A DNA stretch of 64,000 nt, from NCBI GenBank assembly GCA_001724265.1, contig MEDY01000030.1, positions 1-64,000 of the forward strand, in the 5' to 3' direction. The stretch is from Rhizaria sp. SCN 62-66. Lineage: Eukaryota. The translations under genes and the position numbers were made by a program. The notes under the pieces are model-generated. The model saw only the letters and a program-made list of their open reading frames with translations, searched no databases and was not told the DNA's origin. Numbering within the stretch: the stretch's first letter is position 1; each line of letters starts with the position of its first letter. This document shows, piece by piece, positions 6,902 through 57,300 of this stretch.

Positions 6902-9900
6902 AGCGTCGTCCTCGCGCTCAAAGCCGCCGAGTAACGGGCCCTCGCCAATCTCACCCTCCTCCGCATCGCCCCCCTCCGCGTCGTCCTCTGCGCCGGTGCG
7001 CGCGTTGACGCGCGTGTTGGAGAGCCAGCGCTCGAGCGCGGGGGAGAGCGAGCCGCGCGTGGGCAGCGCTGCGAGCGCGGGCATGCGCGTGCGCCGCTGC
7101 AGGATCGCCGCTGCCGCCGCGCCCGCGCCGCCCGCGGCCACGTGCAGTCGCGCCATCGCGAGCACCACGCCCTCCGCCAGCGCCTGCTCAGCAGCAGCTG
7201 CCGCGGCGGCGGCGGCCTCGGCCGCGGGGTCGCTCCGCGCGATCTCAGCGTCCGCGTCAGTGTCAGTGTCATTATCTGCGCCAGCGTCAGCATCAGGGGC
7301 GCCATGGGCGCGCACAGACGCAGACGCAGACGCAGGCGCAGACACGGACAGAAACAGAGGCAGGACTGCGGGACCGAGCGCGGCGACCTCGGGCCCGTGC
7401 GCGGCGCACCGCAGCGCGGCGGCGCGCACAACGGCCTCGAACAGCGCGGCCAGCCGCGGTGCGGGCGCGGGCTGCGCTGGGTCAAACGCGTTGACGAACC
7501 GGTCGTAGTACGCCGCGGCGCCCGGCAGCGAGGCGCGCTGCGCTGCGTCGGTCCATCCCAAGCAGCCGTCGCGGCGGGCGCGCAGTGCGGCGGCGCTCTC
7601 CGCGGCCGTGGCGCCCAGCAGCACGGCCTCAGCAAGCGCGGCGGCGTCATCTGACCCGTCGGCCGCGATCTCGCCCTCGGCCTCGTCCTCGCCCGCGCGC
7701 GCCCACAACAAACCCGCTGCTGCGGCGCCTGTTGTAGCTGTAGAGCCCGGTGTGGTCGTGGCGCAGCCGGACCAGACGCCGCGCACCGCGGGGAACGCCA
7801 GCGCACTGCCGGCGTCCTCACTGGCACTGTTGCCGTCGTCGTTGGCGTTGTCGGCGTCGTAGTCAGCGCCGCTGCTGTCGTCGTGGTCGCAGAGGGGGTC
7901 GAGGCCGCGGGCGAGGAGCGCGAGCGTACGGCCCGGGCGGGCTGCGCGCGCGGCGCGGCGGCGGGCCAGCCACTCGACGGCGGCGCGCGCGTCGCGGCGG
8001 TACAGCGTGCGCAGACCGCACGGCTCGCCGGCGGGCGACGCGCTGGCCGCGCTCTCTCCAGCGCGTTCTAGCTCGGCGGCCGCAGAGGGCGGCGCCGCCA
8101 CGCCCGCGGCCACGCTCAGCACCGGTAGCACCACGCGCACGCGCGCGCGCGCACTCGCACTCTCACTCGCTGCCCCAGGGGCGGTGTCAGCGCCAGAGCT
8201 CGCGGCCCGCGCATTAATAGCGGCGGAGCGCGGCAGACGCAGCAGCCCGCGGGCGTGCGCGCGCGCGGCCTCGCGCGGGCCCAGCGTCGCCACGTACAGC
8301 GTCACGCCCGCGCTCTCCGGCTGCGGCTGCAGCTGCAGCTGCGCAGTCGTCGCCTTGGTGCCCGCTGCAGTCTGACCGTTCCTGTTGCTGCCGCGGGCTG
8401 CACTGGCTGCGGTGGCTGCGACGTTGCGGCGCGCGAGACGGAGCCCCGCGCGGACGCCCAGCTCGCGCGCCTGCGCGACGACGGTCCACGCCGTGTGCGC
8501 GACGAGCGCGTGCGCCAGCGCCAGCAGCGCGCTGGCGCCCAGCGCCGCGCCCTGCGCGACCCGCAGCGCGTGCGTGCGGGCGCGCGCGGCGTCAGCGTCG
8601 TCGCGGCGCCGCAGCGCGGCCGCGAGAGCCGCGGCACTCGGCCCGCGCAGCGGCGACGCGAACTGCGGCATCACCACCATCGGCACGCCAGCGGGGCCTG
8701 TCGCGGCCGCCTGCGGCACCGGCTCCGCCTCGGCCAGGGCCGCCGCGGCCGCTGCGGCGGCGTCTTCGGCGGAGATGCGGTGACCCGTCTCAGCCTCCGC
8801 GGCGGCGCGGCCAAGCCCGAGCTGCGAGAGCGCGGAACGCTTGATGAGCGGCGCGCGCAGCTGAGCCAGTGCGGCCTCGGCGACGGCGGCGCCCAGCGGC
8901 GGCGGGCTGTGGAGCGCCTCGCCTGCCGCCCATGCCGCCACTGCGGCCGTCGGCACGCCCGTCCCCGGCACGGCCACAGCAGCAGCAGCAGAGCTGGCAG
9001 TGACTGCGCCGTCGCTGTCGTGGTGTTTTAGCTTCAACGTCCGTTTCCCTCGCTTTGTTGCTGTTGCTTCATTCGCGCCGGTCGCGACGACCTGACCGAG
9101 CGCGCGGACGGCGTCGAAGACGGCGCCCGCGGTGGGGGCCAGCGCCAGCGCGGCGTGACTCGCGGGCGCCCAGGCAAGCCGCGGGACGGCGGCGTGGACG
9201 CGGGAGAAAAGCCAGTTGGGCCGCGCCGCGAGGGACGCGCGCGCGGCCGTGGCGCCGCGGAGCCCCGCCGCGGGTGCCGCGAAAAGGAACGACACGATGC
9301 ACGCGCGCACGGAGCCCGGAAGCGCGGCGAGGTACGCGTCGACGGTGAGGCGGTACGCGGCGTGCGCGGCGTCGAGCGCGCGTGCGGCCTCGACCGTACC
9401 CAGCAGTTCGCCGGCCGTCTGCCCGTAGTGGTTGCTGGCGGGCCGCGCGTGCACCGTGGGGTCCGCACCGTGGTGCAGCAGTAGGCACGCCACGTCCGTC
9501 GAGCGGCGCGCGCAGGCCAGTAACAGCGGTGAGTAGCCGTGTAGGAAGAGGTTGACGTCGGCGCGCACGTCAAACACCCCTGCGGCCTATTCCGCCGCGG
9601 CCTCCGGCGACAGGTCGGGCTCCTCGCCGCAGAGCCCCGAGAGCGTGTCGTACACGGCGTCGACGTCGGCGTGCACGGCGCGCGCAATGTGCCAGACCTT
9701 GTCGCGCGCGCGCTTGAGACGGCGGCCCTGGACGTCGAAGTCCCAGTCGGCGTCGAGCGACGCGCACGCGCGCCACAGCGACAACGACGCCACCTGCACC
9801 GCGCTCGCGGGCGCGCGCGCCGACAGCGCCACGGCCGACGCGATCTCGCGGTCCACGGCGGCCTCCTCCGCGTACTCAGCCGCCGCAACGCGCAGCAGCG

Positions 9901-36700: not shown

Positions 36701-39673
36701 CCAGCAAAGGGAGTGAACTCGAAGTAACGCGAGTTGGCACCGCGCGACGTGACACCATAGCGGGTGATAGTGCACGCCACGCCACCAAAGGTCACAGTAG
36801 GAACACCGAGGTAGACGTACGGCGACGGCAAGGTCAAGATGATACCCTGATTAGCGTTCATCACACTGGTTGCAAGCGTGCCCGCAGTGTTGTCAATACT
36901 GTGGACCAGCTCCACCGTAAGATTGGTCACGGCACCGTAGGTGTGGACCGCAGGTGCGGTAACCGTCAGACTCGACTTAGTCGAGGCAAGGGCGACGACA
37001 TTGACAGTAACGACGAAGCGGTGGACCGTAACCCAGCTATTGGTGCCCGCGTCAATCATAAACTCGACGATAAGCTCACTCGCCTGGGGTTGGTAGTGGC
37101 CCGGCATCTGCGCGAAGCCCATGATGTTGATGTTAGGCTGCGTCGAGGTAGGCGAGCACGAAACTAACTGCATCTCGACGTGCCGCAGTGCAGCGCTGGT
37201 GGTCGTCACAGTGCCGACACACGTGTTCCAGCCGCCAGTAGCACTCAAGCTGAACGTCATGTTTGCCTCGGCAGTCGTGCGCGAGGGAAGCATGAAGAGA
37301 ATCTTGCGCGCACCAGAAAAGGTGGCATAATTGGCCGGGAGAGTGGTGGGCGTGATGGTGAGGTCCTTAGCGAACTGCATCGTCACACTCACGGACGTCG
37401 CGTCAGACGCAGGCTGCAGCGAGAAGGACGACGGCGGCGCGCGGCCGATCTCGACGAGAGTGCCGGCGGTGTTCTTCACGGATAAGATGGGGATGGTAAG
37501 CATGTTGACGAGCAGTGGACGGATGTCGAGAGGGCACTCAATATAGTAGATGTACGCGTTGCCGGCGTTAAACGCCGCAGGGACGTCGGAAGTGGTGGGG
37601 GTGATAGTGCAACCCGTCGAGTCGCCACCATCAATCGTCACCGCCATTGTCGCGCTGCCGGCTGGAAAGAATGACCCTGAACCGAGTCCCGTGGAGACAC
37701 TGATAGACTCAGAGCGCCACTTGCTGCCAGTCACGGAGATCAGCGGGCGCGCGGGCGTGGGCGCGGGGAAAGTGAAGGGCGACAGCTGGGGGAAGCTGAC
37801 GACACCACTGGCGAAACCGCGGCTGAAGAGTTCGGCAGCCGTACCAGTGCGGAGCAGCTGAACCTGGATGTCGTACGGGTTGAACTGAACCAGGACCTTG
37901 GGCATCGTGATAGCAAGGGTCAGAGGCAACTTGCAGTTCGCAGCAACGTTGGCAGTTGACCCAGTACAACCTGTGAGACCATATGTGTAGTCCGCGACGA
38001 TGTAGCCGTTGTAAGTACCAGAAGCAGTCGCTGTGAGGGCTGTTCCGTTGACGGAGACAGTACCCATGTTATTCGGGATGATAATCGCGATACGTGCAGT
38101 CGTGTCGCTCATGTGAAACTTTGTAACATCGATCGTGAGAGTGAACGTAAAAACTCCACTGGTCGCCAAGAAATTGTACGTCAGACTCGTGGCCGCGGTA
38201 GGTGCGAGCGACACAGGCAGCTCGCCGTGGCGCGCAATGAAAGGGACAATACCCGCACCAATGGTGGCACCGAGGTCATCCAGGAGGGAGACGGTGACTT
38301 CGTACGTGTCGGCAGAGGACGGACACATGAAGAGGCCAGTAAGTGTCAGGGTCAGAGTGGACACAGTAAGGGAGGTCGGAGCAGTATACTTTAGGATCGC
38401 ATTGCTCACGAAAGATCCGGTAACACCCTTAGTAAGTGATCCGGTTACACCTGTGACTGCAATATTTGAAGTGATACTGGAGACCACGCGCATCGTTGGC
38501 GGAATATCAATGCGAATTGACGAGTGTGTCCGAGAGGTCGGAACAGTGAATATCACTGTAACCGCTGATTCAAGGCGTGCGCCGGAGATACAGTCGATAG
38601 CCGTGGTGGGCGTCGGCAGATCAACCGGGTCAAGCACCATGGGCAGCTCTGCCACCGCACTGGCGCCCGTGACGCCGATGATCGAAAGCGAACCGGGGTG
38701 GTATTGGTACGGGTTGGACGTGGCGCGGACGGCGACGTTGGCGACGCGGATCACGCACGGGTCGCATGTGAAGCTCGAGCTCGTTTTGAGTTTGAAGTTA
38801 AGCCGGATCATCGAAGATGACGTGTCGACCACGGCCAACGACGAGTGCCATTCAGTGAAGGTAGCCGAAGCGTCATTAGGGTACGTCAGTCCGAGCGCGG
38901 GCGTGCCCGAGGCTGTGAGAAGCTCCGGCAGCATCAGCGAGTAGCGGTTCTGATCAGTCGTGTTCTGCGAGGTAAAGAACGTAAAGAACGTGACCATGAC
39001 GCTGGTAGTCGTATCAGCGACAATCTTAGCGCCCGGGAAGATCTGAGGCACAACGAAGCCGTTCACCGTGTAGACGGTGTTACACGACTCATTCTCAAAG
39101 TACACGTTGAAGGCAACAGTCGTTCCAGGCGGAGGGTGCGAAAAGGCAATCGCCATTGTCACAGTCACGGTCGAACTGGGCACGGTACAGCTCAGGCCAT
39201 CGGTCATGAGGCCGGCGGCTTCGAGAGTACCGACTGGGCATGCAGTCGGAATCTTGAAGTAGTCGGTGACGATGAGCGGGAAAACACCCTCAACGCGGGC
39301 AACTTTTGATGCTGCACATGGTAAAGAAATTGATGCTAGAGAGACGTTCATATCGTACTTGACGTTAGTCGGAAGCGTCGGCGCTGTTGTAGGAGTTACA
39401 TACTAAACAAAATAAATATGAAGAGGAAGAAGCAAGATCATCCGAAAGAGGTCGTCAAAGGACAGGAGAGATGAGAATGAGACGTGAGTCGAGAAGCAGT
39501 TGTCAATATGGGACACAAGACCACATATAGATAACGTGTACGCGTGGTGCATGTATGCTTTTGTGCCAACGTACATTCGCTGTAGCGGCTGTAAAAGCAG
39601 CTTGGGCTGTCTGTGCTACCACCACGAGCCAGAGGCTCAGGGCGAGCAGAATTGGATAGAACTGCCGCCCCAT
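18790..39673 (-). CDS. Giant (~6,900 aa) cell-surface multi-pass membrane protein (exons 39673-39575 and 39402-18790)
   Basis: Signal-peptide exon MGRQFYPILLALSLWLVVVAQTAQA is spliced via GTACGT...TTTAG. Then S/T-rich beta repeats, two beta-propeller-like segments, 8 Sushi/CCP repeats, a Ca-EGF (DIDEC), IPT/TIG domains, CxxGxY Cys-rich repeats, a multi-TM region and an acidic tail. Ends in TAA. Confidence 0.88.
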
Positions 39674-41655: not shown

Positions 41656-44600
41656 TTACCAGACGACGTCTTCCTGCGTACTGCCGACAGGCGGCCATTG
41701 CACGGTGTCGTCGGATGGGAACCACATCTTAACGGGAATCGCAAAAGAGCCCTTGACCATGAAAAGCCCGATGGGTTCCTGCTCTTCCTCGTCTTCGCCA
41801 GTGGAGCTTTTGACAGCTTTGGTCACCGTGTCGAGCGTCGTCGAGACCTGCTGCTGGTCGACGCGCCGCGGCGGTGGCGCGGGCTCAGGCGACATTATCA
41901 TCACGGTAGCCGGAACCTCACCGGGCTGCAAGAACAGCGCCGCAGTGTCATCGTCAATCTTTGGACTGCCCACGGCCCCGCTAACTGCCACTGCATCACA
42001 TGTGGCGTTACCAGAAGCAGCGCCCGTGGCTGCGCCAGAAGCTTCGCCGTCGTAGGCGTAATTGGGCGCCATCGGCTGCTCGCGGCTCTGGTCGCGCTGC
42101 ACGGCCGTCTTAAGCGCGGCTGCGGCGTTGGCAGCGCGGGCACCAAGTTCCTTGCCAACCATAACGTGACCGCGCTCCTCGAACACAAAGTCTTTTTCAA
42201 TCAACGACTTGGTGGCCTCAGACACGTGAAGGCGGTTCTTGACGCCGTGGCTTTCCATCTTTTGCGCCACGGTCACCGAGCGGCCGAAGAGGTGATAACG
42301 CGGCATCGTGCGTCCAACCACACCGGCCGTTACATATCCGGTGTGGATGCCCACGCGCAGGCCCATCGGTGGGATCGGCGGCAGCTCCGACTCAACGTCC
42401 ACTTTCTTGGTCTTTGCGCGCACACGGAAGAAGCCCGTTTTAGCGAGCTCACGGTCACGCTCACGCTCGGCCTTGCGCTCGCGCGCAGCGCGCTTGGCCG
42501 CGAGACGCATCTGCTTCGCGCGCTTCGATGCAAGCGGGTGTGGCAGCAGCGAGAGGAAAAAGACGATGTCCATGCCGAAGTGGACGAGATTGCGCGCGTG
42601 CTCACGCGCGGGCAGTGCTTCGAAGTTGGTAAGCGAGTGCACGATGCCTGCGCAGGCAAAGTAGCAGTCACCAATGGTCTCGACCTTGTAGATACTGCGG
42701 ATCGTGGCGCACTGATCAAAGACGGAAAACATGACGTTGAGAAACATGACAAGCTCCTCTGGCAACAGCTGCGCCGACATCGCAGTGAACGACACGACAT
42801 CAGCGAACAAGATCGACGCCGTCTCAAAGTGCTGCGCGAAGTTAGAGTTGTCCGTGTGCACAATCGTGAGCAGTACCTCGGGCGGCAGCATCTGCGACAG
42901 CAGGTACAGCGCGCGTCCCTCCTCGTGCACCGCACGGTGCGTGTTGATGTAGTTCGACCGGATGCCGCGCTCCGCCAAGTGCGCTGTGCGCAGCAGCAGG
43001 ATACAGGCCACCGCGACGAGCGCGATGTAGACGTACGTCGCATCGGTGGCGTGCATGCCGCCGTGGACGAGCATCGCGACGGTGAAGTGCACAAAGATAG
43101 TGACGGTGACAATAAGAATGCCGGGGAACAGTAACGTCGACTGCATCGACACGCAGACGAGCAAACTCAAGAGCAGCACAGCGCCGAGTCCGGTGTGCAG
43201 AATGTGTGAGAAGACCATAGCGACGATCAGAATGTGCGCGAAAACAAAGACGCCCAGTCCGACCAAAAACTGCAGGTGGTTCAGCATCCACGACCGCAGC
43301 AGGTTCATGCTAGTGGCTGCCGGCTCAGCCGGCTTGCTCTTGTTCAGATCCGCCGTGTTGAGCGTGATATTGCTTGTGCTAACAGTGTGGCCACCGGACT
43401 GCTGACTGGACGAGTTGTTGTTGTAGTTGCGCGACACGTTCATGTTAGTCACGGCTGAGTGCAGCGTGTACCCACGCAGATCCTGATTCTGCAGCTCGTT
43501 GCCCTGATTCATGATCCGGTGGTGCAACGACAGCGCATCGTTGTGATTCTGCAGCTTGCGCGCCGTCACCGTCAACACCACCACAGTGATGACGCCGAAC
43601 AGCAGCACGCCGCCCGACAGCGCAAAGGCGACGTCGTCGTCGGCCGTCGCGCTGATGACATAAATGCTCGTCGTGCCGAGCCCGATGTCGCGGGCGTACA
43701 GCGCGCAGAAGAGCGTGGCAAGCAGCGTGAAGCAGAGGACGAACACGCGCATCTGATCCGCGAATACTTCATGATACAGCAGTCCGAAACCAGCCTCCAG
43801 GTCCGAGACAAGGTCGTCGTCCATGTAGAACGCAGCGGCCGACTCTTTCTCAGCCTTCAGACGCGCCTCCTCGGCCGCACTCTGCGCCTGCGCCTGCCGC
43901 GCTTCTTCTTCGACGTCGCGCGCGGGCGGCGGCGGCGGCGGCTGCTCTTCGGGCTGCACAGTCTCATCCGCGTCATTCTGCGCACGCGCGCGCTCGAAGG
44001 CCTCCTGGATCATCTTGCGGAACTGCTGGTCATCGTCACCGTCGTCGCGGTACACGTTGCCTTGGTCGTCGACCTTGTCGCCCGCCTTGAGCTCTTGCTT
44101 CTTGGGCGCCGACTTGGCAGCGCGCTTAGACGTGTCTTCGTCGTCCTCCTCGTCTGCCTCGCCTGGTGCGACACCGCGCGCCGTGAGACGTTGGCGCTGG
44201 CGCTCGCGGATGCTGGCCTTGGAGCGGAAGCAGTCGAAAAACCAGCCCCAGAGCCCTTCGCCGTTGTGGTAGCGCAACAGCAGCGAGTCCGTCATTGCCT
44301 TCGGGTTGCTAGGGTACAGAAAGAAGTTCACCGGGTTAGTGTTGGCGTAGAACATGTGCGTTGCGCTGTCGGTCAGGGACGCCAGCGACGACGTCGAGCC
44401 GACAGAACCCGCAGAGGATACGGACTGCTCATCGTCATACCGCCTGCGCGGCGGCAGCGGCGAGGCATGAACAGTTGTCGCAGCGGCGGCCGCGGCAACA
44501 GCAGCAGCAGCAGCAGCAGCCGCGTCCGCGGGGTCGTCCTCGCTCACTATGAGCGGGGGCGCGTCCTTGTTCAACGGCGCCATCTCCACCGCGCCGCTCT

Positions 44601-47600
44601 TGCCAGCACTACCTTGACCAGCTGAACTGTGGCTGTGCGAGGCTGCGCGCGCGGTGGCGTTAGAGGCCACAGCCGCCTCTCTCGCGGTGACCGTGTCGCC
44701 GCCATTGATCGCCTCGATCAGCGCGCTGCCGCCGCCCAGGCGCTGTGCGGCGAAGATTTTGGCGTCCCACTCGAGGCCCTGTTCGTGCGTCAGCGGCTCG
44801 ATCACTGGCAGCGCGTCGGGCTCCTCAGGCGCGTCCACCAGCACAGCCGGCGTGTCCCCGCCCGCGATGCCACCGCGCGCCGACAGAGGCGTGGGCAGCG
44901 GCACGGGCTGCGTGCCGTCGGTGTTGAGCTCACTTTGGTCCGACGAGTGCACCTCGTTCAGCGCGGCCACAGCGCTGTCGCCGTCGGGCGCAAACGTCAC
45001 CACGTTGGTCGCGAACGTGAGCACGCGCGCGACCTGATGCGGCGTGTTCGGCGTGCCGGCAACCTGGCCAGGCAGCACCTCATCGGGCGTCAACGGCGAC
45101 TGCGCGGGCGTCGCGTCCGCAGATCCCGGCCCCTGACCGGGCACCGAGAGCAGGTTCGGCGTGCGGCGCATCGACTTGGGCGCGCCGCCCTTAAGCGAGT
45201 TGCCACCCGGTGTACCACCGGCGCCGCCAGCGCCACCGCCAGAGACGAAGCTCACCATGGGCGCGGGCGCAGAGCCCAGGCGGAGGTGCGCCATATCAAT
45301 CTGCGGCGGCGCAAAGGCGCCCTCGTGGCGCGCCATCATCGAGGCCGCGTGCCAGCGTGCAGACATGCCCGGCGTGCGCGTGCGCGCGGACATGTCGCCC
45401 GCGGAGTCGCGCGCGTAGTCGCCGACAGTGAGGGGGCCGCCAAGCATGCGTGTGCCGGTGTAGGGCGACGCGCCGACTCGGGCAAATTCTCCGCCGGCAC
45501 GGCGCTGGTGCTGGCGCAGCTGTGCCGACGCGTTGACAACGGCGTCGATGTCAATCGTGTTGTCATCGTTCATCAGACGCACGACTTGTTGTGGGACCTG
45601 TGAGCCGGCGGATGACTGCCGGTTCGTCGACAACGGCGTATAATTGACCGTGGGTTGTGGGAACGCGAGCAGCGACGACGGCGGGCGCGAGTTTGGAGAG
45701 TTCATGGCGGCCGGGTCAGTGGGTGGCAGCATCAGATTCTGCGGCCCCGTGATCTGGCCCAAAGCAGCAGTGCGCGGCGTGGCGCGGACAATAGGTGACG
45801 GCACGTAACCGTGCATCATGTTCGACTGCGAGCTCGCGACTGAGCCCGCGCCTGCGCCACTGGGCGGCATCGGCGCGACACGGTGGCGCGACGCCGACGG
45901 CGGTGGGTGCGGCGGAGAACTTGGCAGCAGCTTCGACGGATGCGGTGTTATGCCCGCGGCGGTCAGAGCGCTGCGCGCCGAGGGCTGGAACACGGGCGAA
46001 GCGCGGTCCGCGTCCGAGTTCGGCGGCGGCACCGTGCCGCCGCTTCCAGACTGGGAGTTGTCGAACATGATCACAGCGTCGGGGCCCGACGCGGCAGGGA
46101 CGCCGCGGCCGAGCCCGCTGATGGACGGCGATGCGTCGCGCGACATTCCCGGCACTAGCGAGCCCGTGGGCGCGAAAGAGGCCGGGAGCACGATCGTCGC
46201 GCCGCCAATAATGGCGCTATTGAGCTCCATGATCGCGCCCTGCGCCCCCGCGCCGCGGGCCGAGGCGAGGCCAGTGCTGCGCATACTGGAGCGCGGGGTC
46301 GGGAGCACACCGTGCCGCTGCGTCGCAGCCATACGCGCCGCGCTCAGCAGTGCACCAGTGCCGCGCGCAGACGCCGGGGGCTCCGCAGCGCTGCGCTGTT
46401 GCTCCATCCCAGTCCCCGTAGCCGCAGGGTTGACCGTGCGCACGTACGCGGGCGTGGAGAAGTGCGCCGACGCCGGCATCAGCGCCGAGTGCACAGCGGC
46501 AGCGCGGTTGCGTGCGGCAACACCAGCGCCGGCGAGCATGGCTTGCGTCATGCGCGCGCCGCCGGTGCGGATAACCGCGGGCGCGGTGGGCAGCACACGC
46601 TGGCCGTTGGCAGGCGTGCCGCTCGTGGCGCGCGAGGACATCGCGCCGCCGGCGAGGGCGTCGTTGAGCACCGAGTTAAGGTTGCCGATGACCCCCGCGT
46701 CGAGTATGCTGACAGGACTGCGAATGGCGTTGTGAGCTCCGGCGTCGAGGACGTTGCCGACAAGCGAGTCGCGGCGCCGCGCCATGCGGCCGAGGCGCAC
46801 AAAGGGCCGGAGCTCCTCGGTCGCGCCCGCGCCCATGGGGGAGTTCATGATGTTGGGCGAGCTCAGCATCGGCGAGCTGAGCATCGGCGACCCCATGGCG
46901 TTGAGCAGCGTGTTTGACGCGCGCGAAGACGTCGCGTGGCCCGACAGGCGACCCGCGTTGAGCATTGCGCCAGGCGGGGACTGCAGTTGGCCCTGCGCGA
47001 GGTTGCGGCCCTGCGACAGCGGCGTGCCCGACACACGGCGCGACCCCGACAGCGAAGTCGTCGACGTTGACGACTGGTGCCGCAGTCCTGGGATCGTAGG
47101 CGACGGCGCCCCCGCGCGCGAGCCCGTGATGGCAACCTGGTTCGCGGCCGCGGGCGACGGGTTCTGTAGCAACCGCGTGGTGCCCGTCACTGGGGTCGCC
47201 GACGCCGCGGGAGAGCCCAGGCGTGAGCTTACCGCGGGCGCGACGCCCACGCCGGTGCTGCTCGCAGTGCGCTGTGCGGGCGTCGGGGACAGCGGCGCGC
47301 CGGAGCCCGAGGGCAAGCCGCCGCGGCCGGGCGTCTGCCAGCGGCTCAGCGTGTGAGCTGACGCCAGCGATCCCGTCTCGACGTGGCCGTAGGCGTGAAA
47401 GGAGGTGCGCTGCCCGCCGGGGCTGCCCAGACCGGCGTTATGGGGGGGCGCCGAGATGGCCGCCTGGTGCGGGTGCGAGTACGCGGTGGGCAGCGGCATG
47501 CTCGCGGTTGTCATAACCGACTGGTTGAACCGCGGGTCTAGCGGGGGCATGTCCGTGGGAAGGCTGTTGCGCGCGGCGTTGCGCGGCGGTGAGAGGCCGC

Positions 47601-50600
47601 CACGGGCGGTGGTGAACTGCGTCACTGTGTGGTTCGGGATTGGGGCCGTGAGCTGCAGTGTGCCGGGTGCAAAGTGAACTTCCTTCATTGTGTTGGAGTT
47701 GGCTTCGACCGCGGAAGCAGAGGGTGCCACGGCGGGCTCCGTCGTCGCCGTCGCTGTGATGCCCAGAGACTCGTCCACGGCCGCCGAGCCGCCCATCGCA
47801 GATCCGCTCATTGCGGAGGCGCCGCCATCGTGCCCGTGGCTGGTATTGTTGGGGTTGTTGCTGTTGTTGTTGTTGTAGCGCATGTGCGCGTACTCTGGGT
47901 CGTCTTCCCTGACATGGTGGTCATCGTGATGATGATGTTCATCATCATCGTGGTGGTGACCGTGATCGTCCTCGCACTCGCCCTCGGCGACCGCGTCCGT
48001 GAACGTGTTGCCGTTGCCCTGTCCGTCGCCGTGGCTGTGAGTGCGGCGGTAGTGGTCCTCGCGCTCAAACCGCGCGCGGTCGTGATCGGGCCCTGCACTC
48101 GCGCCGCCGGAGCCGACGACGTTGATCATAAGCTGGCCGTACTCGGCCGCGGCGGGGATCTCGTTCGCCGCGGCCGCGATCTCGTTGAGCAAGTGCACGT
48201 GGTCAGCCAGCACGAACTGCTGTTGTGGCGGGCCGGGGATGGGGTTGGGCACCATTGCGCCCGACGCCATAGACGACGTATCATCGACTTCCTAGTAGTA
48301 TTCCGAGTACCGTGGCGTACGGATGGGCTCGTCGTAGGCCGCCGTGTACGGGTTCACCGTTTCCGTCTCCACGGCTTCGTCGACAGGCGTGGGGCCGTAG
48401 AAGTCGCGGCCGACGCGGATCGGCGCCACTTCGTCGTCGTCGTGGATGATCGGCAGCGGGGGACCACCAGACTGCTGCTGCTGTTGTTGATACAGCTGTT
48501 GTTGTCGCTCAGGTCCGCCAAACTCTAGCGGCGCCTCGCCATCGATGCCCTGCTCCTGCATCATCATCATCATCATCATGGCCTCGTCGCCCTCAAAGCC
48601 CTCCATCATCACCGCGCCCTCGTCACCGCCCTCGCCCATGTGTGCGGCGGCAAACGGCGGCAGCGGTGCATGGCCTGCAGCCGCTGCGAGGTGCATATCG
48701 AGCACTTGTTGGTCCATCTCGCCGAAGTATTCGACGTCAGCGCCTGCGCCACCGACGCCGCCGCCGGCCCCGCCCGCGCCGCCGCCGCCACCGAGCCCGC
48801 CCAGCCCGCCGCCGCCGCGCCCGCCGCCGCGGCCGATGCCGCGACTGAGCCCCGACCCCGTGGCGAGGTACTGGAACCCGTCATCGTCCTCGATAACTTC
48901 CTCCGCGGCGCCCGCGGAGGGCGAGAAAGTGTAGCGCGCGTCGACACCCTTGCGGCGGCCTTCGAGGCGCCAAGTGCGCATCTCACCTTTGCCTTTGACG
49001 GGCATCGTGCCCAGGTCGGCGAGCGCGTAGCAGATGGACTCGGATGGGTGCAGCGCAGTGCCAACGGGGTCAGACCGGATGTCTTGGCCGGCCTCAATTT
49101 CGTTATCCGGAGTCATGACGAGACGCGCCGTGTCGGACGAAAGCTGGATCGTGTCGGGCTTGCACGTGGAGCCCATGCGTGACGAGGTGTTGATTGTGTC
49201 GCCGATGATGCGGTAGCGCGGGTAATGCACGCCGATCACACCGGCGACGACGGCGCCAGAGTGCAGACCCATCTTCATGCGCAGCTGTGGGAAAAGCTGT
49301 CGGATGCTCGCCAGAGCACGCAGCGCCAAGTCGCACATAACGTCGGCGTGTAGCACTTGCTCGAACGGGCAGCCGCACGAGACGAGGTAAACCTCACCGA
49401 TCGTCTCAACCTTGTACACACCGTACGCCTTAAATTCGGCGAGCTTGGCGTCTAAGTCAAGGAAGATCGCGTTGAGCAGCATGACGAGGTGTGGCGCTTC
49501 GATGCGGGAGGCGATCTTGTCAAAGTCGCAGATGGAGGTAAACATGATGGTGACGGATGGGAAACGCTCCCACGCCTGCTGCATCGCAGTGCTCTTCATG
49601 CGGTCAACAATGGGCTTCGGCAGCATGCGCAGCAGCACCATGTTCATGTTGCGCTCGTACGTCTTAATCTGCGTGTTGAGCAAAAACGACTGGCGGTCGA
49701 AGAGTTCTAAGTTATAACCTGCGCGCGCACGGAGCGCGATAGCACACAGCATCACAGCGGCCACAATGGCCCAGCTGGCGTATGTCGACAGCGTATAACG
49801 GCCGACAAGCGGCAGCGCAACGAGCGGGAACGCGCTCACTTCACCGGCCTCGAGCAGCGCAAAAACGACCCACACGAGGAAGCTGAAGATGTTTAGTACA
49901 GAGGCGACAACCCACTTGCGCTGGACGTCTGAGTGGCCCCACAGCATGACGGCCAACAATGGCGTCAGATACAGCGGGTTCAGCGTCATCCACAGAAGGA
50001 ACGCGCAGAGAATGTGAATCAGCACGAGGAGCAGCAGCGCAGCAGAGCGGACGACCTCAGCCGCTGGCATGAACGACGTCAAATGTGAGTAGAACGTGTA
50101 CGGCATCGCCGCGCGCACTGTGTGCCACTGCTCCGGCGTAGAGCAAAACGCCGTGCGGTCGTCCACAGCCGCACCCGCGCCGCCGGCGTCGCCGCTGTCG
50201 GTCGGGCCGCCGCCACCGTCACCACCACGGCCGCCGTTAACGTCATCGTCGCCGTCGACAGCGTAGTCGTCGTCGAAGTCGCCCGGTGACCGCACGTTAC
50301 CGCGTCCAGCGGCGAGGGGTGACTCAGCGCCGTCGGGCAGCATACGCTCAACCGCCTCTGGCAGCTCCGCCGTGGGCAGGTCTTCGTCCTGCGCCGCGGT
50401 CGCCGCGGCAGTACGGTTTGTGTCGGCCACGAGCTCTGCGCCGTCGCTCAGCACCACGCCGTCGTGGTTCACTTCGAGCACCACGGAACCCATGGGCACG
50501 TGGGCGCCGTCGTCTGCGCGCGCGGCGTTAGCGCTAGCGGCCGCGGCGGCGCTGGCGGCGGCGTTGGCGGCGGTTTGGGCCTTGCGTGCGGCGACGACAC

Positions 50601-51195
50601 GCTCGCATAGACTGTGTGTGATGTACCAGGCGACGCCGATAACGACAAAGCCCAGCACGCGGAGGCCAAGCACGACGTACAGCAGCGTCTGTTTGTCGCC
50701 CCACGCCGCGCCAGAGTCAGGGGCGAAGTCGAAGTCTTGCACAACGAAGTCTGCGAGAGCGAGCAAGGCCCACAGGGGCAGCATAAGAAGAAACGGGCTT
50801 GTGGTCGAAGCGCCAATCTTCTGCGCATAGTTCGCGTACGCGGCTTCGAGGTAGGCACTGAAAAAGCCTAGGGTGTGGGAGTCGACCATCTGCTCCATCA
50901 GAGTAGGGAGCTCGACGTCTATTTCGTCGCCTTCAGAGACCTGACCGAAACCGGAGTCGCCGTTGGACATAGCGTCCTCTTCGTCGTCGTAGTTGTGATT
51001 GTACAGACTTGGGCGCAACGTGCGGGGTTGCCCGGACGGCACCGTCGACGGCGCGGCTCGCGATGGAAGACGCGCAGGTTCGGCGGCCGTCTCAGGCCCG
51101 ACGTAGTAGGAAGAGCCCGGACCGCGTCGCGGCGGGGGCTCCGACAGGCCGTGCTGCGGCCCGGGGCTAGCTTGCGGCGGGGACTCGTACTCCAT
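41656..51195 (-). CDS. Membrane class III nucleotide cyclase, TM-C1-linker-TM-C2, probably guanylyl cyclase (~3,180 aa), with an in-frame TAG at 48292-48294
   Basis: ORFs 51255-48292 and 48270-41656 share a frame (TAC TAC TAG GAA GTC GAT GAT ACG TCG TCT ATG). C1: YKVETIGEVY...PRYRIIGDTINTSSRM. C2: LFADVVSFT...YKVETIGDCY...PRYHLFG. Ends in TAA. The start codon is uncertain and an upstream exon is possible. Confidence 0.85.
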
Positions 51196-52277: not shown

Positions 52278-53678
52278 TCATCGTGTCTCAGAGCTCTCCT
52301 GCTTCTGCTCAGCCGCAGTCGCAGGAGCAGTGGGACTGGGACTCGCGGTCACGGGTGCCGGAGTACCTGCCGCGGCGCCATGGGCGTGATCATCATCGTG
52401 CGCGTGTCCCTGTCCGCGGCCGTAGAGGTAGCCGTGCCCGTGCCCGTGACTGCTGCTGCCGCGGCCGCGGCCGTGGCCGTGTTCATGGTCGTGGTCGTGG
52501 CCGTGGCCGTGGCCGTGGCCGTGATCATGCCCGTGGCCGTGATCGTGGAAGTCGCAGTCGCGCAGCAGCACGCGCTTCAGCGTCTCGTACACGCCCCAGC
52601 AGATGGCCGCCGAGGGCATGAACAGCAGAACGCGCGCGCGGGCGCCCTTGGTGAACCCGGCCCAGCCGTTCTCCGCGTAGATCTTCTTGGCCATGGCGAC
52701 AGTGCCGAGCCGGCCGAGCGCGCCCGCGGGCACGTCCTGGGTCTGGATGCGCGTGCGGAGGACGTCCAGCGGGTTCGACACCAGTCCGCCGAGCGCGCCT
52801 GCAAGCCCGCCGGCGAAGATGTCGCGCAGAGGCGTGTGGTCGGCGCCGAGGAGCTGGCGCGCCGAGGTCTGCACGCCCTCGTAGATGGTGAAGTGCGTCG
52901 CCATATATGGGATGTTGAGCAGCACGGTCGCCGGGTACGAGGCGTAGAACGCGCGGAGTCCCTCGGCGGCCCACACGCGGCGGATGCACTGCGTGACGCT
53001 GGCGTAGGCGGACCCGGCGACCTGCATGCGCTGCTTGACGACGTCAAGCGGGGTGGAGATGGCGTCGTGCAGCATCGTCGCGCCCAGCCCGGCGGTCACG
53101 TTCGCCACGGGCGTGTGCGAGTCACGCGTGGCGCCCAGCGCGCGCTTGAGCGTCTCGTAGGAGCCAAAGTAGGCGGCGTGAGCCGGGATCGCGCCCAGCG
53201 CGGCGGCCGGGAGACCGCGGTACAGGTGCGTCACGCCCTCAGTGCGCACGATCGTCTTGAGAGTGCGGTGGATGGAGGTGTACGTCGCGGCGGTGGTAGA
53301 GGAGTGGACTTGCTGCATGCGCGTCTTAATGGTGTCGACGGGGAACATGATCATGTGTTCCGTGACGCCGGCGGCGGCGCCGGCGATCATGGCCTTGGCG
53401 GTGGACATGCCAGGGATGGACATCAGGTCCATGTCTTCCGCGTGCGCGTGGAATGACAGCGACGAGTTGCGGCTGCTGCTGGGACCACTGCTACAAGTGG
53501 TGTTGTGAAAGCCGAGGATGCGCGCGAGAGAGAAAGGTGCGTTGGGGCGCTGGGCGGCAGATCCGGAAGCGGAGGCGGGATTAGGCGACGTCGGGGAAGC
53601 CGACGACGAAGTTGACGAAGAAGAGCGCATAGAGGTGTGCAAGGCCGCGGAGGCGGTCTCGCTAACAGTAAACGGCAT
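52278..53678 (-). CDS. Mitoferrin-like mitochondrial carrier (MRS3/4, SLC25A28/37 type) with a His-rich C-terminal tail
   Basis: Three carrier signatures (PVDTIKTRMQ, PLDVVKQRMQ, PLDVLRTRIQ) plus mitoferrin-type motifs AGVTEHMIMFP, GAIPAHAAYF, ATMLHDA and FYASYP..LLNIP. Ends in TGA. Confidence 0.9.
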   Translation of the reverse strand: MPFTVSETASAALHTSMRSSSSTSSSASPTSPNPASASGSAAQRPNAPFSLARILGFHNTTCSSGPSSSRNSSLSFHAHAEDMDLMSIPGMSTAKAMIAGAAAGVTEHMIMFPVDTIKTRMQQVHSSTTAATYTSIHRTLKTIVRTEGVTHLYRGLPAAALGAIPAHAAYFGSYETLKRALGATRDSHTPVANVTAGLGATMLHDAISTPLDVVKQRMQVAGSAYASVTQCIRRVWAAEGLRAFYASYPATVLLNIPYMATHFTIYEGVQTSARQLLGADHTPLRDIFAGGLAGALGGLVSNPLDVLRTRIQTQDVPAGALGRLGTVAMAKKIYAENGWAGFTKGARARVLLFMPSAAICWGVYETLKRVLLRDCDFHDHGHGHDHGHGHGHGHDHDHEHGHGRGRGSSSHGHGHGYLYGRGQGHAHDDDHAHGAAAGTPAPVTASPSPTAPATAAEQKQESSETR

Positions 53679-54369: not shown

Positions 54370-57300
54370 ATGAGCCGACAAACTCGAGTTCGCGCCCAAC
54401 AAGATGGGCAGCAACCCACCTTCAGCTAGCACTCGGCTGTGTGGGTCGACGGAGCGGGGGCGTACAACGCCAACGCCTCCGGTCCGGGCTTTCTGAGTGA
54501 CAGCCTGCGTAAGCGGCTTGAGGACGCAGGCTACGCCATCAACACGGCGGACCAACTCCCTTCGCTGGATGAGCTCACGCGTCTCATCACAGTCGATCTC
54601 GCCGGTCTCTGGCTCGCCCCTAGCCGCGTCCGTGCCATGTTTCCCGCCCCGGCGGCACCACAAGCAGCGACAGCGCCCACCGCAGGGGCGACGGCTGCTG
54701 CGCAGCCGTCTATGCGCGCTCAGCGGCTGCCGCGCCGCAACAATAGCCGCGTTACCGAGGTTGTGCTCATTAGCGACTCCAGTTCGGAGGCCGGCTCCGA
54801 CAACGAAGATATTCGCGGTGGTATCAAGGCCGGCGACAACATGGCCGACGGCAGCAGTGCTGTCAAGATCGACGGCGGCGCCAGTGCTGTCCGTGCGCAG
54901 CTCGCACCGGTCGCGGACGCGGATAACGATAAGAACGCTAAGAACTCCGCCGCCGATGTCAAGCCCGTCGACATGAAGCCAACCGCGGCGGATCAGAAGC
55001 CCGCCGCCGTGGCTGGCTACATGACAGATGCCGCTGTGCCTGCTGATTTTAGGTCTGCTACCTCTGCCTCTGCGTTTGGTCCCGCTCTGCCCCCGTCCTC
55101 AGCCGCTGCCGCCTCTGCTGCAGTGACCTTGACCGCGACCGCGGCCGTTGCTGCAGCCGATGCGGACGCCGGCGACGACACCGACGCGGCGCTGCGGCCC
55201 GCACTGCTCCGCTCCGTGCTGCAGCTCACTATTGAGGCCGCCAAGACTATCTCCGCGCTCAACTGGGGCGAGCGGTCCACGCCGACGACAGAGCTACTGC
55301 AGCGCGCGATGTCATCCTCGCACAACCGCGCCGGTCCACTGCCCGCCGCCGCCCTCACTGGCACGGCCGCACTGCTGCGCGCGCTGCGTGAACGGTCCGC
55401 GCCCGGTGAGCCTCTGTATGTGGCCCTCGAATCAGCCCCCGCGGAGGCCGTTGCGCGCACGCTGTTCCTCCTGCAGCGCGCTCGCCTCGCGCGGCACGTC
55501 GTGCGCATCCTCAACGCCGCGCTGCTGGACGGCGAGTGGGCGCGTCTGGAGCCCGCCGCGACGACGCCGGCGCGCGAGGCCAAGTTCGAGCTCACGACAG
55601 ACTGCCCCGCGGAGCTGTTTCTGACTCTGTGGAGCGATGTGATGACCGTGCTGGCGCAGGCGCGGTGGCTGGATCACCCGCCGCCCGCCGCGCGCCCGCA
55701 GTCGCTGCCGCTGCCGGCCGTGGGGGACGTGCTGCCCGCGTGGATGGAGCTGCCCGCGCAGCCGAGCCCGACGCCGACGATGCTGTGGCACGAGAAAGAG
55801 CGGCAGCGCGGAGAGTTTTCCGTCCGGTTCCCGTTGCCGCCTGCCGTGCTTGCACGCATTGTGCAGACGGAGCGTGCGCTGCTCGCGGATGACGCGCGCG
55901 CTAATGCTGACGCAAACGCTCACGCACACGCCAATTCCAGCTCCAGCTTCAGAGCCAGCGTCAGTGCAAGTGCCAGTGCGAGGGCGAGTGATGACAGTGG
56001 CGCTGGCTCCGGAGCGTTGCAGCCTTCGGCGTTATCTTCAACACTGACAATGCAAGGCCAGACACCGATTTACGGCGTCGCGCCTGTGACATTCTACGAC
56101 TTATTGGGCGCTGACGGCGACGCGCCCGGCTGCTACGAATCGTGGCCTCGCGCGCTGCTGCGCCAGCTTAACGTTTCACAGCAACAGCAGGAAGACTAGC
56201 GGCAGGAGCATAATGTGCGCAGTGAAGCTGACCTGCGTGCGTTAACGCCCGATGAGTGCGCTGCACTGATCGAGAGCCAACTCCCAGCGCCAGCGATGCT
56301 CATGGTTCACTTACAGCGCACTGACAGCGACGACCGCGTCGGCAGCAGTGACGTAGACCAGGACGAGGTGGGCGGGCCTGACGAGGCGCGACTGCGGCTG
56401 CTGCGGCGAAAGCACGTGATGTCTGCTCTTTTCGCCGGGACACACGTGGCGCCCGACTTTGACCCGTATGGACTCACCCTGCGCGAACCCTGGACGCCCC
56501 GCGCGCCGCTCTCCCATCTGCTTTCACCGACGCCCACAGTCTCTCCCGAGCCGGCTACTGCATGTACTCGTGGCTCGCTTGAGGTTGTGCTCTTCCAGTT
56601 GGCGCTGGAGCGGCTGGAGACCGCCGCCGCGCTGCCGTGGCCCGTTCCGCCGCCATACCTGCGCCGGTTTTGCCACGCCGCTGGCCATGCACGGGCTCCG
56701 CCGACCGCAGCGCCGCCCGCGTTCCCGTCCCCCGGGTGGTCCTTTCGCGCGCAGCTGCTGACGCTGGCGTGCCTGGCCAGCGCGATGCCGCTGCTGCACC
56801 CGCTGTGGGCGGACCGGCTGTGGCGCAGAACGCTCTCGGGCTCGGTCAGGCTCCTGTGGCGGCTACCGGATCAGGCGCTGCGGAGCGACACGACGTGCGA
56901 TGCGTTGTTGAAGCTACTGTTGGCCACGATGAACCGCGCGAGTGTGGCGGCGCAGCGCTGGGAACCGATTCCCTGGCTCTTGTTTGGTGAGACCGTTGAC
57001 TTCGCGCTCACGCCGCCTGCGATCTGGCTCGGCCTTGCCGCAGGGGTGCGGTTTGCGCTGTCGCCGATTCTGTCGCGCCGTATTGCCGGACTGACGTTGC
57101 TGCAGGGCCATGTGTTCATGATCCGTCGCTCATTCAGCCAGATTCGCAAGAATTTTAATGAGATTGAGGGGTTCAAAGCCTTCAATGCGAGCCTCGGCAT
57201 CCCTGAAGGTCCTCTGATGCTACCAGCTTCACGCGAAACCCCCGTAAGCTTGTTGTTCCGCGTGCGACCGCGCCAAGCCTTCGAACTTTCTTCGCCGGGC

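Follow-up and report, generated by a model that had tools for sequence, protein, structure and literature searches.

A single in-frame TAG in a cyclase gene points to a nuclear code in which UAG probably encodes glutamate and UAA and UGA remain stops

In the genome studied here, UAG has probably been reassigned to glutamate in the nuclear code, with UAA and UGA kept as stop codons, and a cyclase gene with a single in-frame TAG is probably translated as one chain. That UAG is decoded and the cyclase is a single chain was proposed, with no amino acid named, in a first-pass annotation; the proposal is now supported by the behaviour of TAG genome-wide, a tRNA with anticodon CUA, the release factor eRF1, alignment columns that contain TAG and unsplit cyclase homologues. 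We suggest that the tRNA-Glu-like gene with anticodon CUA would supply the tRNA that reads UAG and would be charged with Glu, and that the ribosome would pass position 48294 to yield one membrane guanylyl-type cyclase of 3179 aa. UAG would then be a rare, disfavoured Glu codon, served by the one detected tRNA gene.

The window, the whole stretch of 64,000 nucleotides that was analysed, is GC-rich, intron-poor eukaryotic DNA. On its minus strand, the cyclase frame runs from the first ATG at 51195 to a terminal TAA (41656..41658), which is followed by AT-rich sequence; the whole frame (41656..51195) gives the 3179-aa protein P0003 if TAG is read. Its only TAG, at 48294-48292 in the context UAG GAA GUC, lies in frame at codon 968 of the read-through protein and separates open frames of 987 and 2211 codons, with no fall in GC or codon score across it. 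The adjoining segment (48268..48291, minus strand) encodes EVDDTSS up to the first downstream ATG (48270-48268) and is coding-like, which bears out the earlier count of 21 nt and the lack of an intergenic spacer.

The Pfam scan of the cyclase returned Guanylate_cyc only, one domain on either side of the TAG, and no N-terminal P4-ATPase domain. If TAG is read, the protein has two transmembrane blocks in the order TM block, C2-like domain, long linker, TM block and C1-like domain. The first hydrophobic block (49698..50796, minus strand), located approximately by a crude hydropathy profile, has peaks at residues 134, 170, 378 and 428 and continues hydrophobic to about residue 500. It is followed by the C2-like cyclase domain (49081..49569), a low-complexity linker of about 1700 residues with no Pfam match that houses the TAG (43753..48945), a second hydrophobic block with six peaks at residues 2482-2735 (42978..43752, likewise approximate) and the C1-like domain (42157..42837), all on the minus strand. 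Compared with solved cyclases, the first domain has Ser and Glu in place of the metal-binding Asp pair of AC5 C1 and NPR1 (FTSICDF, ETIGEVY), retains the N..R residues (GDTINTSSRM) and aligns best with AC5 C2. The second domain has both metal Asp residues (FADVVSF, ETIGDCY) and lacks N..R (GRSVTVAQKM), and its N-terminal part aligns best with C1 of AC8/AC5. Among the predicted purine-selecting residues, the Glu of KVE in the first domain is NPR1-like, and an Arg in the MPRY motif of the second takes the place of the NPR1 Cys (PRYRII vs PRYCLF). The frame, the Guanylate_cyc domains and the motif alignments therefore agree with the first-pass description of one TAG dividing the gene into complementary incomplete halves, the upstream one with N..R and without the Asp pair and the downstream one the reverse. 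The two domains may fold into one active site with cGMP as its output.

Single-chain guanylyl cyclases with swapped C1 and C2 motifs are described for Plasmodium (GCalpha/beta) and Paramecium in the main text of PMC5746546. The window cyclase resembles them in its two TM blocks and two domains and in having the C2-type motifs first, its purine residues being GC-type at the Glu of KVE and not at the Arg, but differs from the alveolate cyclases in the missing N-terminal P4-ATPase domain and in the 1700-aa low-complexity linker. It is an ordinary member of its kind, and its interest lies in the genetic code. The homologue search suggested by the first-pass annotation produced two proteins with both domains in one chain and in the same order, P0124 (1811 aa), in which the first domain retains its Asp residues, and the flippase-fused P0125 (2067 aa), in which the motif pattern equals that of the window cyclase. 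A close orthologue covering the TAG column was not found among seven matches (31-36% identity) or 47 metagenome loci (reaching no more than 38% over the domain), and the Atlas search gave generic cyclase clusters. Since the TAG sits in an unalignable linker, the Glu assigned to it comes from other TAG columns and not from its own.

A family search of the same genome gave ten cyclase matches, from which two more long cyclase genes emerged, each on a contig of its own. The gene on contig C106 (L159, L160, L162) has TM blocks and a C2-like domain only and ends with TAG TGA before AT-rich DNA; the gene on contig C139 (L157, L158, L161) has TM blocks, a C1-like domain only and its own start ATG. 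No second cyclase domain was found in about 34 kb around the first and about 32 kb around the second gene. The two are likely a fission pair with the architecture of the window cyclase. The complementary half-sites, put forward in the first-pass annotation as independent functional support for decoding, are thus a weak argument: as separate half-cyclase genes exist, the halves need not share a chain, and the case rests on TAG elsewhere. The C106 cyclase also has two more in-frame TAGs, both in Gln runs. Some 8 kb upstream of the C139 half-cyclase lies the end of a frame that by eye resembles a cyclic-nucleotide phosphodiesterase (L161:3-1976, plus strand); close to this end, the frame contains an in-frame TAG.

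The behaviour of TAG was analysed in 101 genome stretches (848,941 bases, 2.4% of the genome), a non-random sample in which 30 stretches are kinase loci and 10 were chosen for kinase matches with TAG. A standard stop was reached by 128 strongly coding frames with a length of 200 codons or more; it was TAA in 63, TGA in 44 and TAG in 21 cases. At least 100 open codons followed 17 of the 21 TAGs, but only 5 of the 107 TAA and TGA codons (4/63 TAA, 1/44 TGA; Fisher p=2e-13), and the downstream GC content was 0.62 after TAG versus 0.42 after TAA/TGA. The sequence after two of the remaining four TAGs is coding-like for 52 and 75 codons, one is intron-like and one (L085), where the frame ends 16 codons past the TAG, is ambiguous; clear terminators numbered none. 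The other 102 TAA and TGA codons had no long open frame behind them, some of them being intron-internal rather than gene ends. The genes for eRF1, the window cyclase and both UBA52 copies end in TAA and the carrier gene ends in TGA; UAA and UGA terminate genes here. The density of TAG was 0.34 per 1000 codons in long frames versus 5.3 in their shadow frames, and this depletion, together with the open frames after TAG, shows that the pattern is not due to chance.

Within coding sequence TAG is extremely rare. Among 154,526 interior codons we counted 33 TAG (about five of which look out of frame), 4967 GAG and 1108 GAA, so that TAG makes up about 0.5% of Glu codons and about 0.02% of all codons. 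Of 142 kinase matches, 5 contained a mid-exon TAG, whereas the matches to kinesin (54), DEAD (43) and ABC (20) and six dynein stretches contained none; outside these counts, a weak SNF2 match and a myosin match each include one TAG. Mid-exon in-frame TAGs in conserved coding sequence comprise those of eRF1, UBE2J1 and five kinases. This rarity fits a recent or inefficient reassignment, possibly with residual termination. Many intron acceptors in this genome are TAG and mimic in-frame TAGs in six-frame searches. Pfam rows with mixed stops were counted as introns, and four of the nine TAG-only kinase rows, together with the kinesin and DEAD rows, turned out to be intron acceptors and were dropped. 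The frame breaks in dynein are introns, and the apparent near-terminal TAGs of L122 and L079 are intronic. In several introns of L002, L137 and L138, a YGACT motif precedes the YAG acceptor by a few bases. In L083 and L085, several in-frame TAGs cluster within genes for repeat proteins that look SEL1-like by eye. Programmed, gene-specific readthrough is marked by a leaky stop context with C at +4 and CAR-YYA. The 21 TAGs share no such context (+4 base: C9 G8 A2 T2).

The window itself contains two more in-frame TAGs: one on the plus strand (56197..56199), in the frame of a UCH-domain deubiquitinase that it divides into 589 and 2600 codons, and one on the minus strand (9587..9589), 132 codons past an ATG in an ankyrin gene (EAAAE*AAG). 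Two other window genes were recorded along the way. After an intron, an uninterrupted frame of 6870 codons (18790-39402, minus strand) follows a signal-peptide-like first exon near 39670 and is predicted to encode a large secreted or surface protein. The mitochondrial carrier at 52278-53456 (minus strand) has a C-terminal tail rich in His-Gly and His-Asp, which is suggestive of a metal carrier.

Our tRNA pattern search covered intron-less genes only, and 63 of 506 candidates were scored. The first pattern had 11 matches (reversed control: 2), nine of them Glu genes, one not a tRNA and one a tRNA whose anticodon is CUA; eight Glu(CTC) loci stand against this one detected CUA gene. It lies on contig C84, is 73 nt long, scores 58 bits with Rfam, has a normal cloverleaf fold and is followed by a T run. 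Of its 73 positions, 47 are identical to each Glu isoacceptor, 46 to Met, 41 to Gln(CTG) and 39 to Asp. It shares the TCCC/GGGA acceptor ends with tRNA-Glu, its T-stem is identical to that of Glu(CTC), and it has U11-A24, U13-G22 and a four-base variable region, which are identity elements of bacterial tRNA-Glu. A looser pattern (16 matches, control 14), again for intron-less genes, detected neither a Gln-type CUA tRNA nor a UUA tRNA, and the CTA pattern matches on C468, C618, C127 and C404 are not CUA tRNAs.

The eRF1 gene (contig C63) carries T32S, G57S and T58K in the GTS and TASNIKS stop-recognition motifs and is unaltered at E55, NIKS, L69, S70 and YxCxxxF. Neither S32 nor S57 occurs in any of 117 homologues, and K58 is found in a single one, P0007, a relative with 84% identity in which T32 and G57 are kept. 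In the eRF1 tree the protein joins P0007 only (support 1.0), and the named homologues are scattered. T58 has a role in third-base binding. T32 forms a bond with the G of UAG, and Iotanema has a different residue at this position (PMC5304391); T32A is lethal in yeast (PMC4381064). Judged from these positions, the three substitutions probably weaken the recognition of UAG. The gene (441 aa, GC3 0.90) itself contains a mid-exon in-frame TAG at codon 107, the conserved Glu107 (L002:1593-1595, minus strand); it is the sole TAG of the gene, and the next codon is the sole AAA among 32 Lys codons, an arrangement that, as a single case, may be chance.

With a Glu tRNA and a possibly still active eRF1, UAG could also be ambiguous: both would compete, and the cyclase gene would yield the full chain plus a 967-aa C2-like half. 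We regard this as unlikely, although several observations speak for it. TAG is extremely rare and nearly absent from conserved domains, one detected CUA gene stands against the eight Glu(CTC) loci, T32S would retain a hydroxyl, the C106 cyclase ends with TAG TGA and the L085 frame closes shortly after its TAG. Against ambiguity, not one of the 21 TAGs is clearly terminal and the codon-biased eRF1 gene carries a TAG of its own; moreover, abundant proteins avoid reassigned codons in Blastocrithidia-type codes, too (main text of PMC12153298). A further, improbable version combines both ideas: in an early UAG-to-Glu reassignment, UAG would still partly terminate and be put to use, with the UAG of eRF1 forming a feedback loop on the release-factor level and the UAG of the cyclase giving, besides the full chain, a C2-like half that could pair with the C1-like cyclase of C139.

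To identify the residue encoded by UAG, we used five mid-exon TAGs in alignable columns; the kinase TAGs of L082 and L083 lie in insertions without a usable column, and a Pfam scan of 42 TAG-centred stretches added one new conserved column, UBE2J1. The eRF1 column (117 homologues) contains E108 D8 V1 Q0, the V being that of the closest relative P0007. The UBE2J1 column (82) reads D39 S12 E10 G6 N3 T2 K1 H1 Q1 with 7 gaps, and two kinase columns (40 each) have E9 A9 D8 Q1 and E8 P7 D7 Q1. The fifth TAG belongs to a NEK-like kinase; here E is found both in P0213, an orthologue with 90% identity and identical flanks, and in the next orthologue, P0215. The search query had E at the TAG and the alignment used X. 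This column is variable over 145 aligned matches (R20 E19 D14 Q13), and human NEK1 has Q. The kinase (L077:4401-7565, plus strand) is fused to a multi-pass membrane region that is conserved in P0213 and P0215. Summed over the five columns, lnL was 0 for E, -1.8 for D, -9.9 for S, -11.3 for Q and -12.9 for L; without eRF1, D was ahead of E by 0.8, and D equals E in four of the five columns. Dominance of Leu, Gln or Ser in TAG columns, as in the described UAG-only codes, was not found. The columns suggest an acidic residue, and the orthologue and the tRNA point to Glu.

A reassignment of UAG to Asp or to Gln, its meaning in Iotanema and some phyllopharyngean ciliates, appears doubtful. Poly-Gln contexts, the Q of human NEK1 and the equal standing of D in most columns would fit it, and intron-containing or atypical CUA tRNAs would evade the patterns, given the share of candidates scored. 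In contrast, Q accounts for 0/117, 1/82, 1/40 and 1/40 residues in four columns, the nearest NEK-like orthologue has E and the body of the CUA tRNA is Glu-like. Under a strict rule, 3 of the 33 TAGs lie in Gln-rich runs and none in acidic runs, and the composition of TAG neighbours gives Q an advantage of 41 ln units over E. However, codons one non-synonymous step away from CAG outnumber TAG in Gln runs (GAG 13, CCG 33 and CTG 35 vs TAG 3), so that mutation of CAG to TAG explains the poly-Gln contexts, and the neighbour composition was discarded as a test of the residue because it is confounded by this mutation.

There is a slim chance that the TAG at 48294-48292 is a true stop, be it between two genes encoding a heterodimer, as a nonsense allele or as an assembly error. 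That this genome tolerates fission in the linker is evident from the stand-alone halves on C106 and C139. Read contigs came from three runs of a single study. Among the matches listed, no RNA contig (X1) lies over the TAG. An X2 contig bridges 47973-48703 without gaps but with four differences of unlisted position, which leaves the TAG unconfirmed; this contig is DNA-like and covers intergenic DNA, so its gap-free span is no test of splicing. Against a true stop, genes here end in an AT-rich spacer, which is missing behind this TAG, and the frame continues unchanged; 16 other TAGs behave alike, and an independent contig that spans the UCH-frame TAG at 56197..56199 shows 10 differences, none of them at this TAG. 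The tRNA and eRF1 evidence also argues against it.

Removal of the TAG by splicing is scarcely credible. The first-pass annotation had named the nearest GT..TAG candidates (19 and 29 nt) as frame-shifting; both are real and do shift the frame, but the list was incomplete, missing a frame-preserving candidate of 33 nt (48320-48288), four of 66, 81, 93 and 123 nt with weak donors and three more of 228-567 nt with 64% GC. The 33-nt GT..AG candidate (48288..48320, minus strand) preserves the frame and has the donor GTACGC found in two of seven measured introns, but these seven homology-measured introns are 134-292 nt long and all end in YAG, whereas the candidate ends in AAG and skips a nearer TAG, and chance candidates of this kind occur at 187 of 2980 codons of the cyclase frame. 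As 33 of 39 GC-rich TAG candidates have no short in-frame intron candidate and the measured introns are long, a short intron is not a general answer.

Regarding the lineage, the long contigs, the introns of 130-290 nt and the unfused cyclase suggest that the organism is not a ciliate. A polyubiquitin junction was looked for and not found. A divergent, AT-rich SSU rDNA of 4.4 kb (L076:1501-5945, contig C706) with, by eye, about four group I intron-like insertions possibly stems from another organism; its first insertion maybe contains a His-Cys homing endonuclease frame (by eye).

The main texts of earlier studies allow a comparison of the preferred reading, UAG as Glu with UAA and UGA as stops, with known codes. 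UAG-only nuclear codes are described for the rhizarian exLh (Leu) and Iotanema spirale (Gln) (PMC5304391) and for phyllopharyngean ciliates (Leu, Gln), Protocruzia tuzeti (Gln) and Scotinosphaera (Ser) (PMC11687900). They share UAG as a sense codon and UAA as a stop, and Iotanema also alters eRF1 T32 (to Gly); in contrast to them, the code here appears to use Glu, combines T32S, G57S and T58K with an unchanged L69, and has extremely rare UAG. In Oligohymenophorea sp. PL0344, UAG is Glu and UAA is Lys, with ten CUA genes of 69-93% identity (PMC10553269). The tRNA(CUA) is most similar to tRNA-Glu in both, but in this genome UAA terminates genes, our pattern search detected no UUA tRNA and the one CUA gene has 64% identity. 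In peritrich ciliates and Blastocrithidia, where UAG makes up 1.4-1.7% of all codons, both UAR codons are Glu (PMC12153298). There, too, a tRNA-Glu(CUA) decodes UAG, but UAA is also Glu, whereas here UAG is about 0.02% of codons, the genome is GC-rich and TAA ends frames. In these sources, UAG=Glu is met only together with UAA=Glu or UAA=Lys (PMC5304391, PMC11687900, PMC10553269, PMC12153298), and no nuclear code that joins UAG=Glu to UAA=stop was found in the literature consulted, which consisted of main texts, few of them from subscription journals.

If true, a code that reads UAG as Glu and stops at UAA and UGA would supply the combination still missing among codes in which UAA and UAG are uncoupled, and it would be a natural step from the standard code to that of PL0344 or to the UAR=Glu codes. 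The rarity of UAG in a GC-rich genome would be at odds with the AT-pressure route proposed for Blastocrithidia and would allow codon capture to be tested directly against the ambiguous-intermediate model. The eRF1 changes T32S, G57S and T58K, with P0007 keeping T32 and G57, would be a small, testable set for third-base discrimination and may be useful for eukaryotic amber-suppression work. For the organism itself, annotation with the standard code would truncate part of the long genes in its genome.
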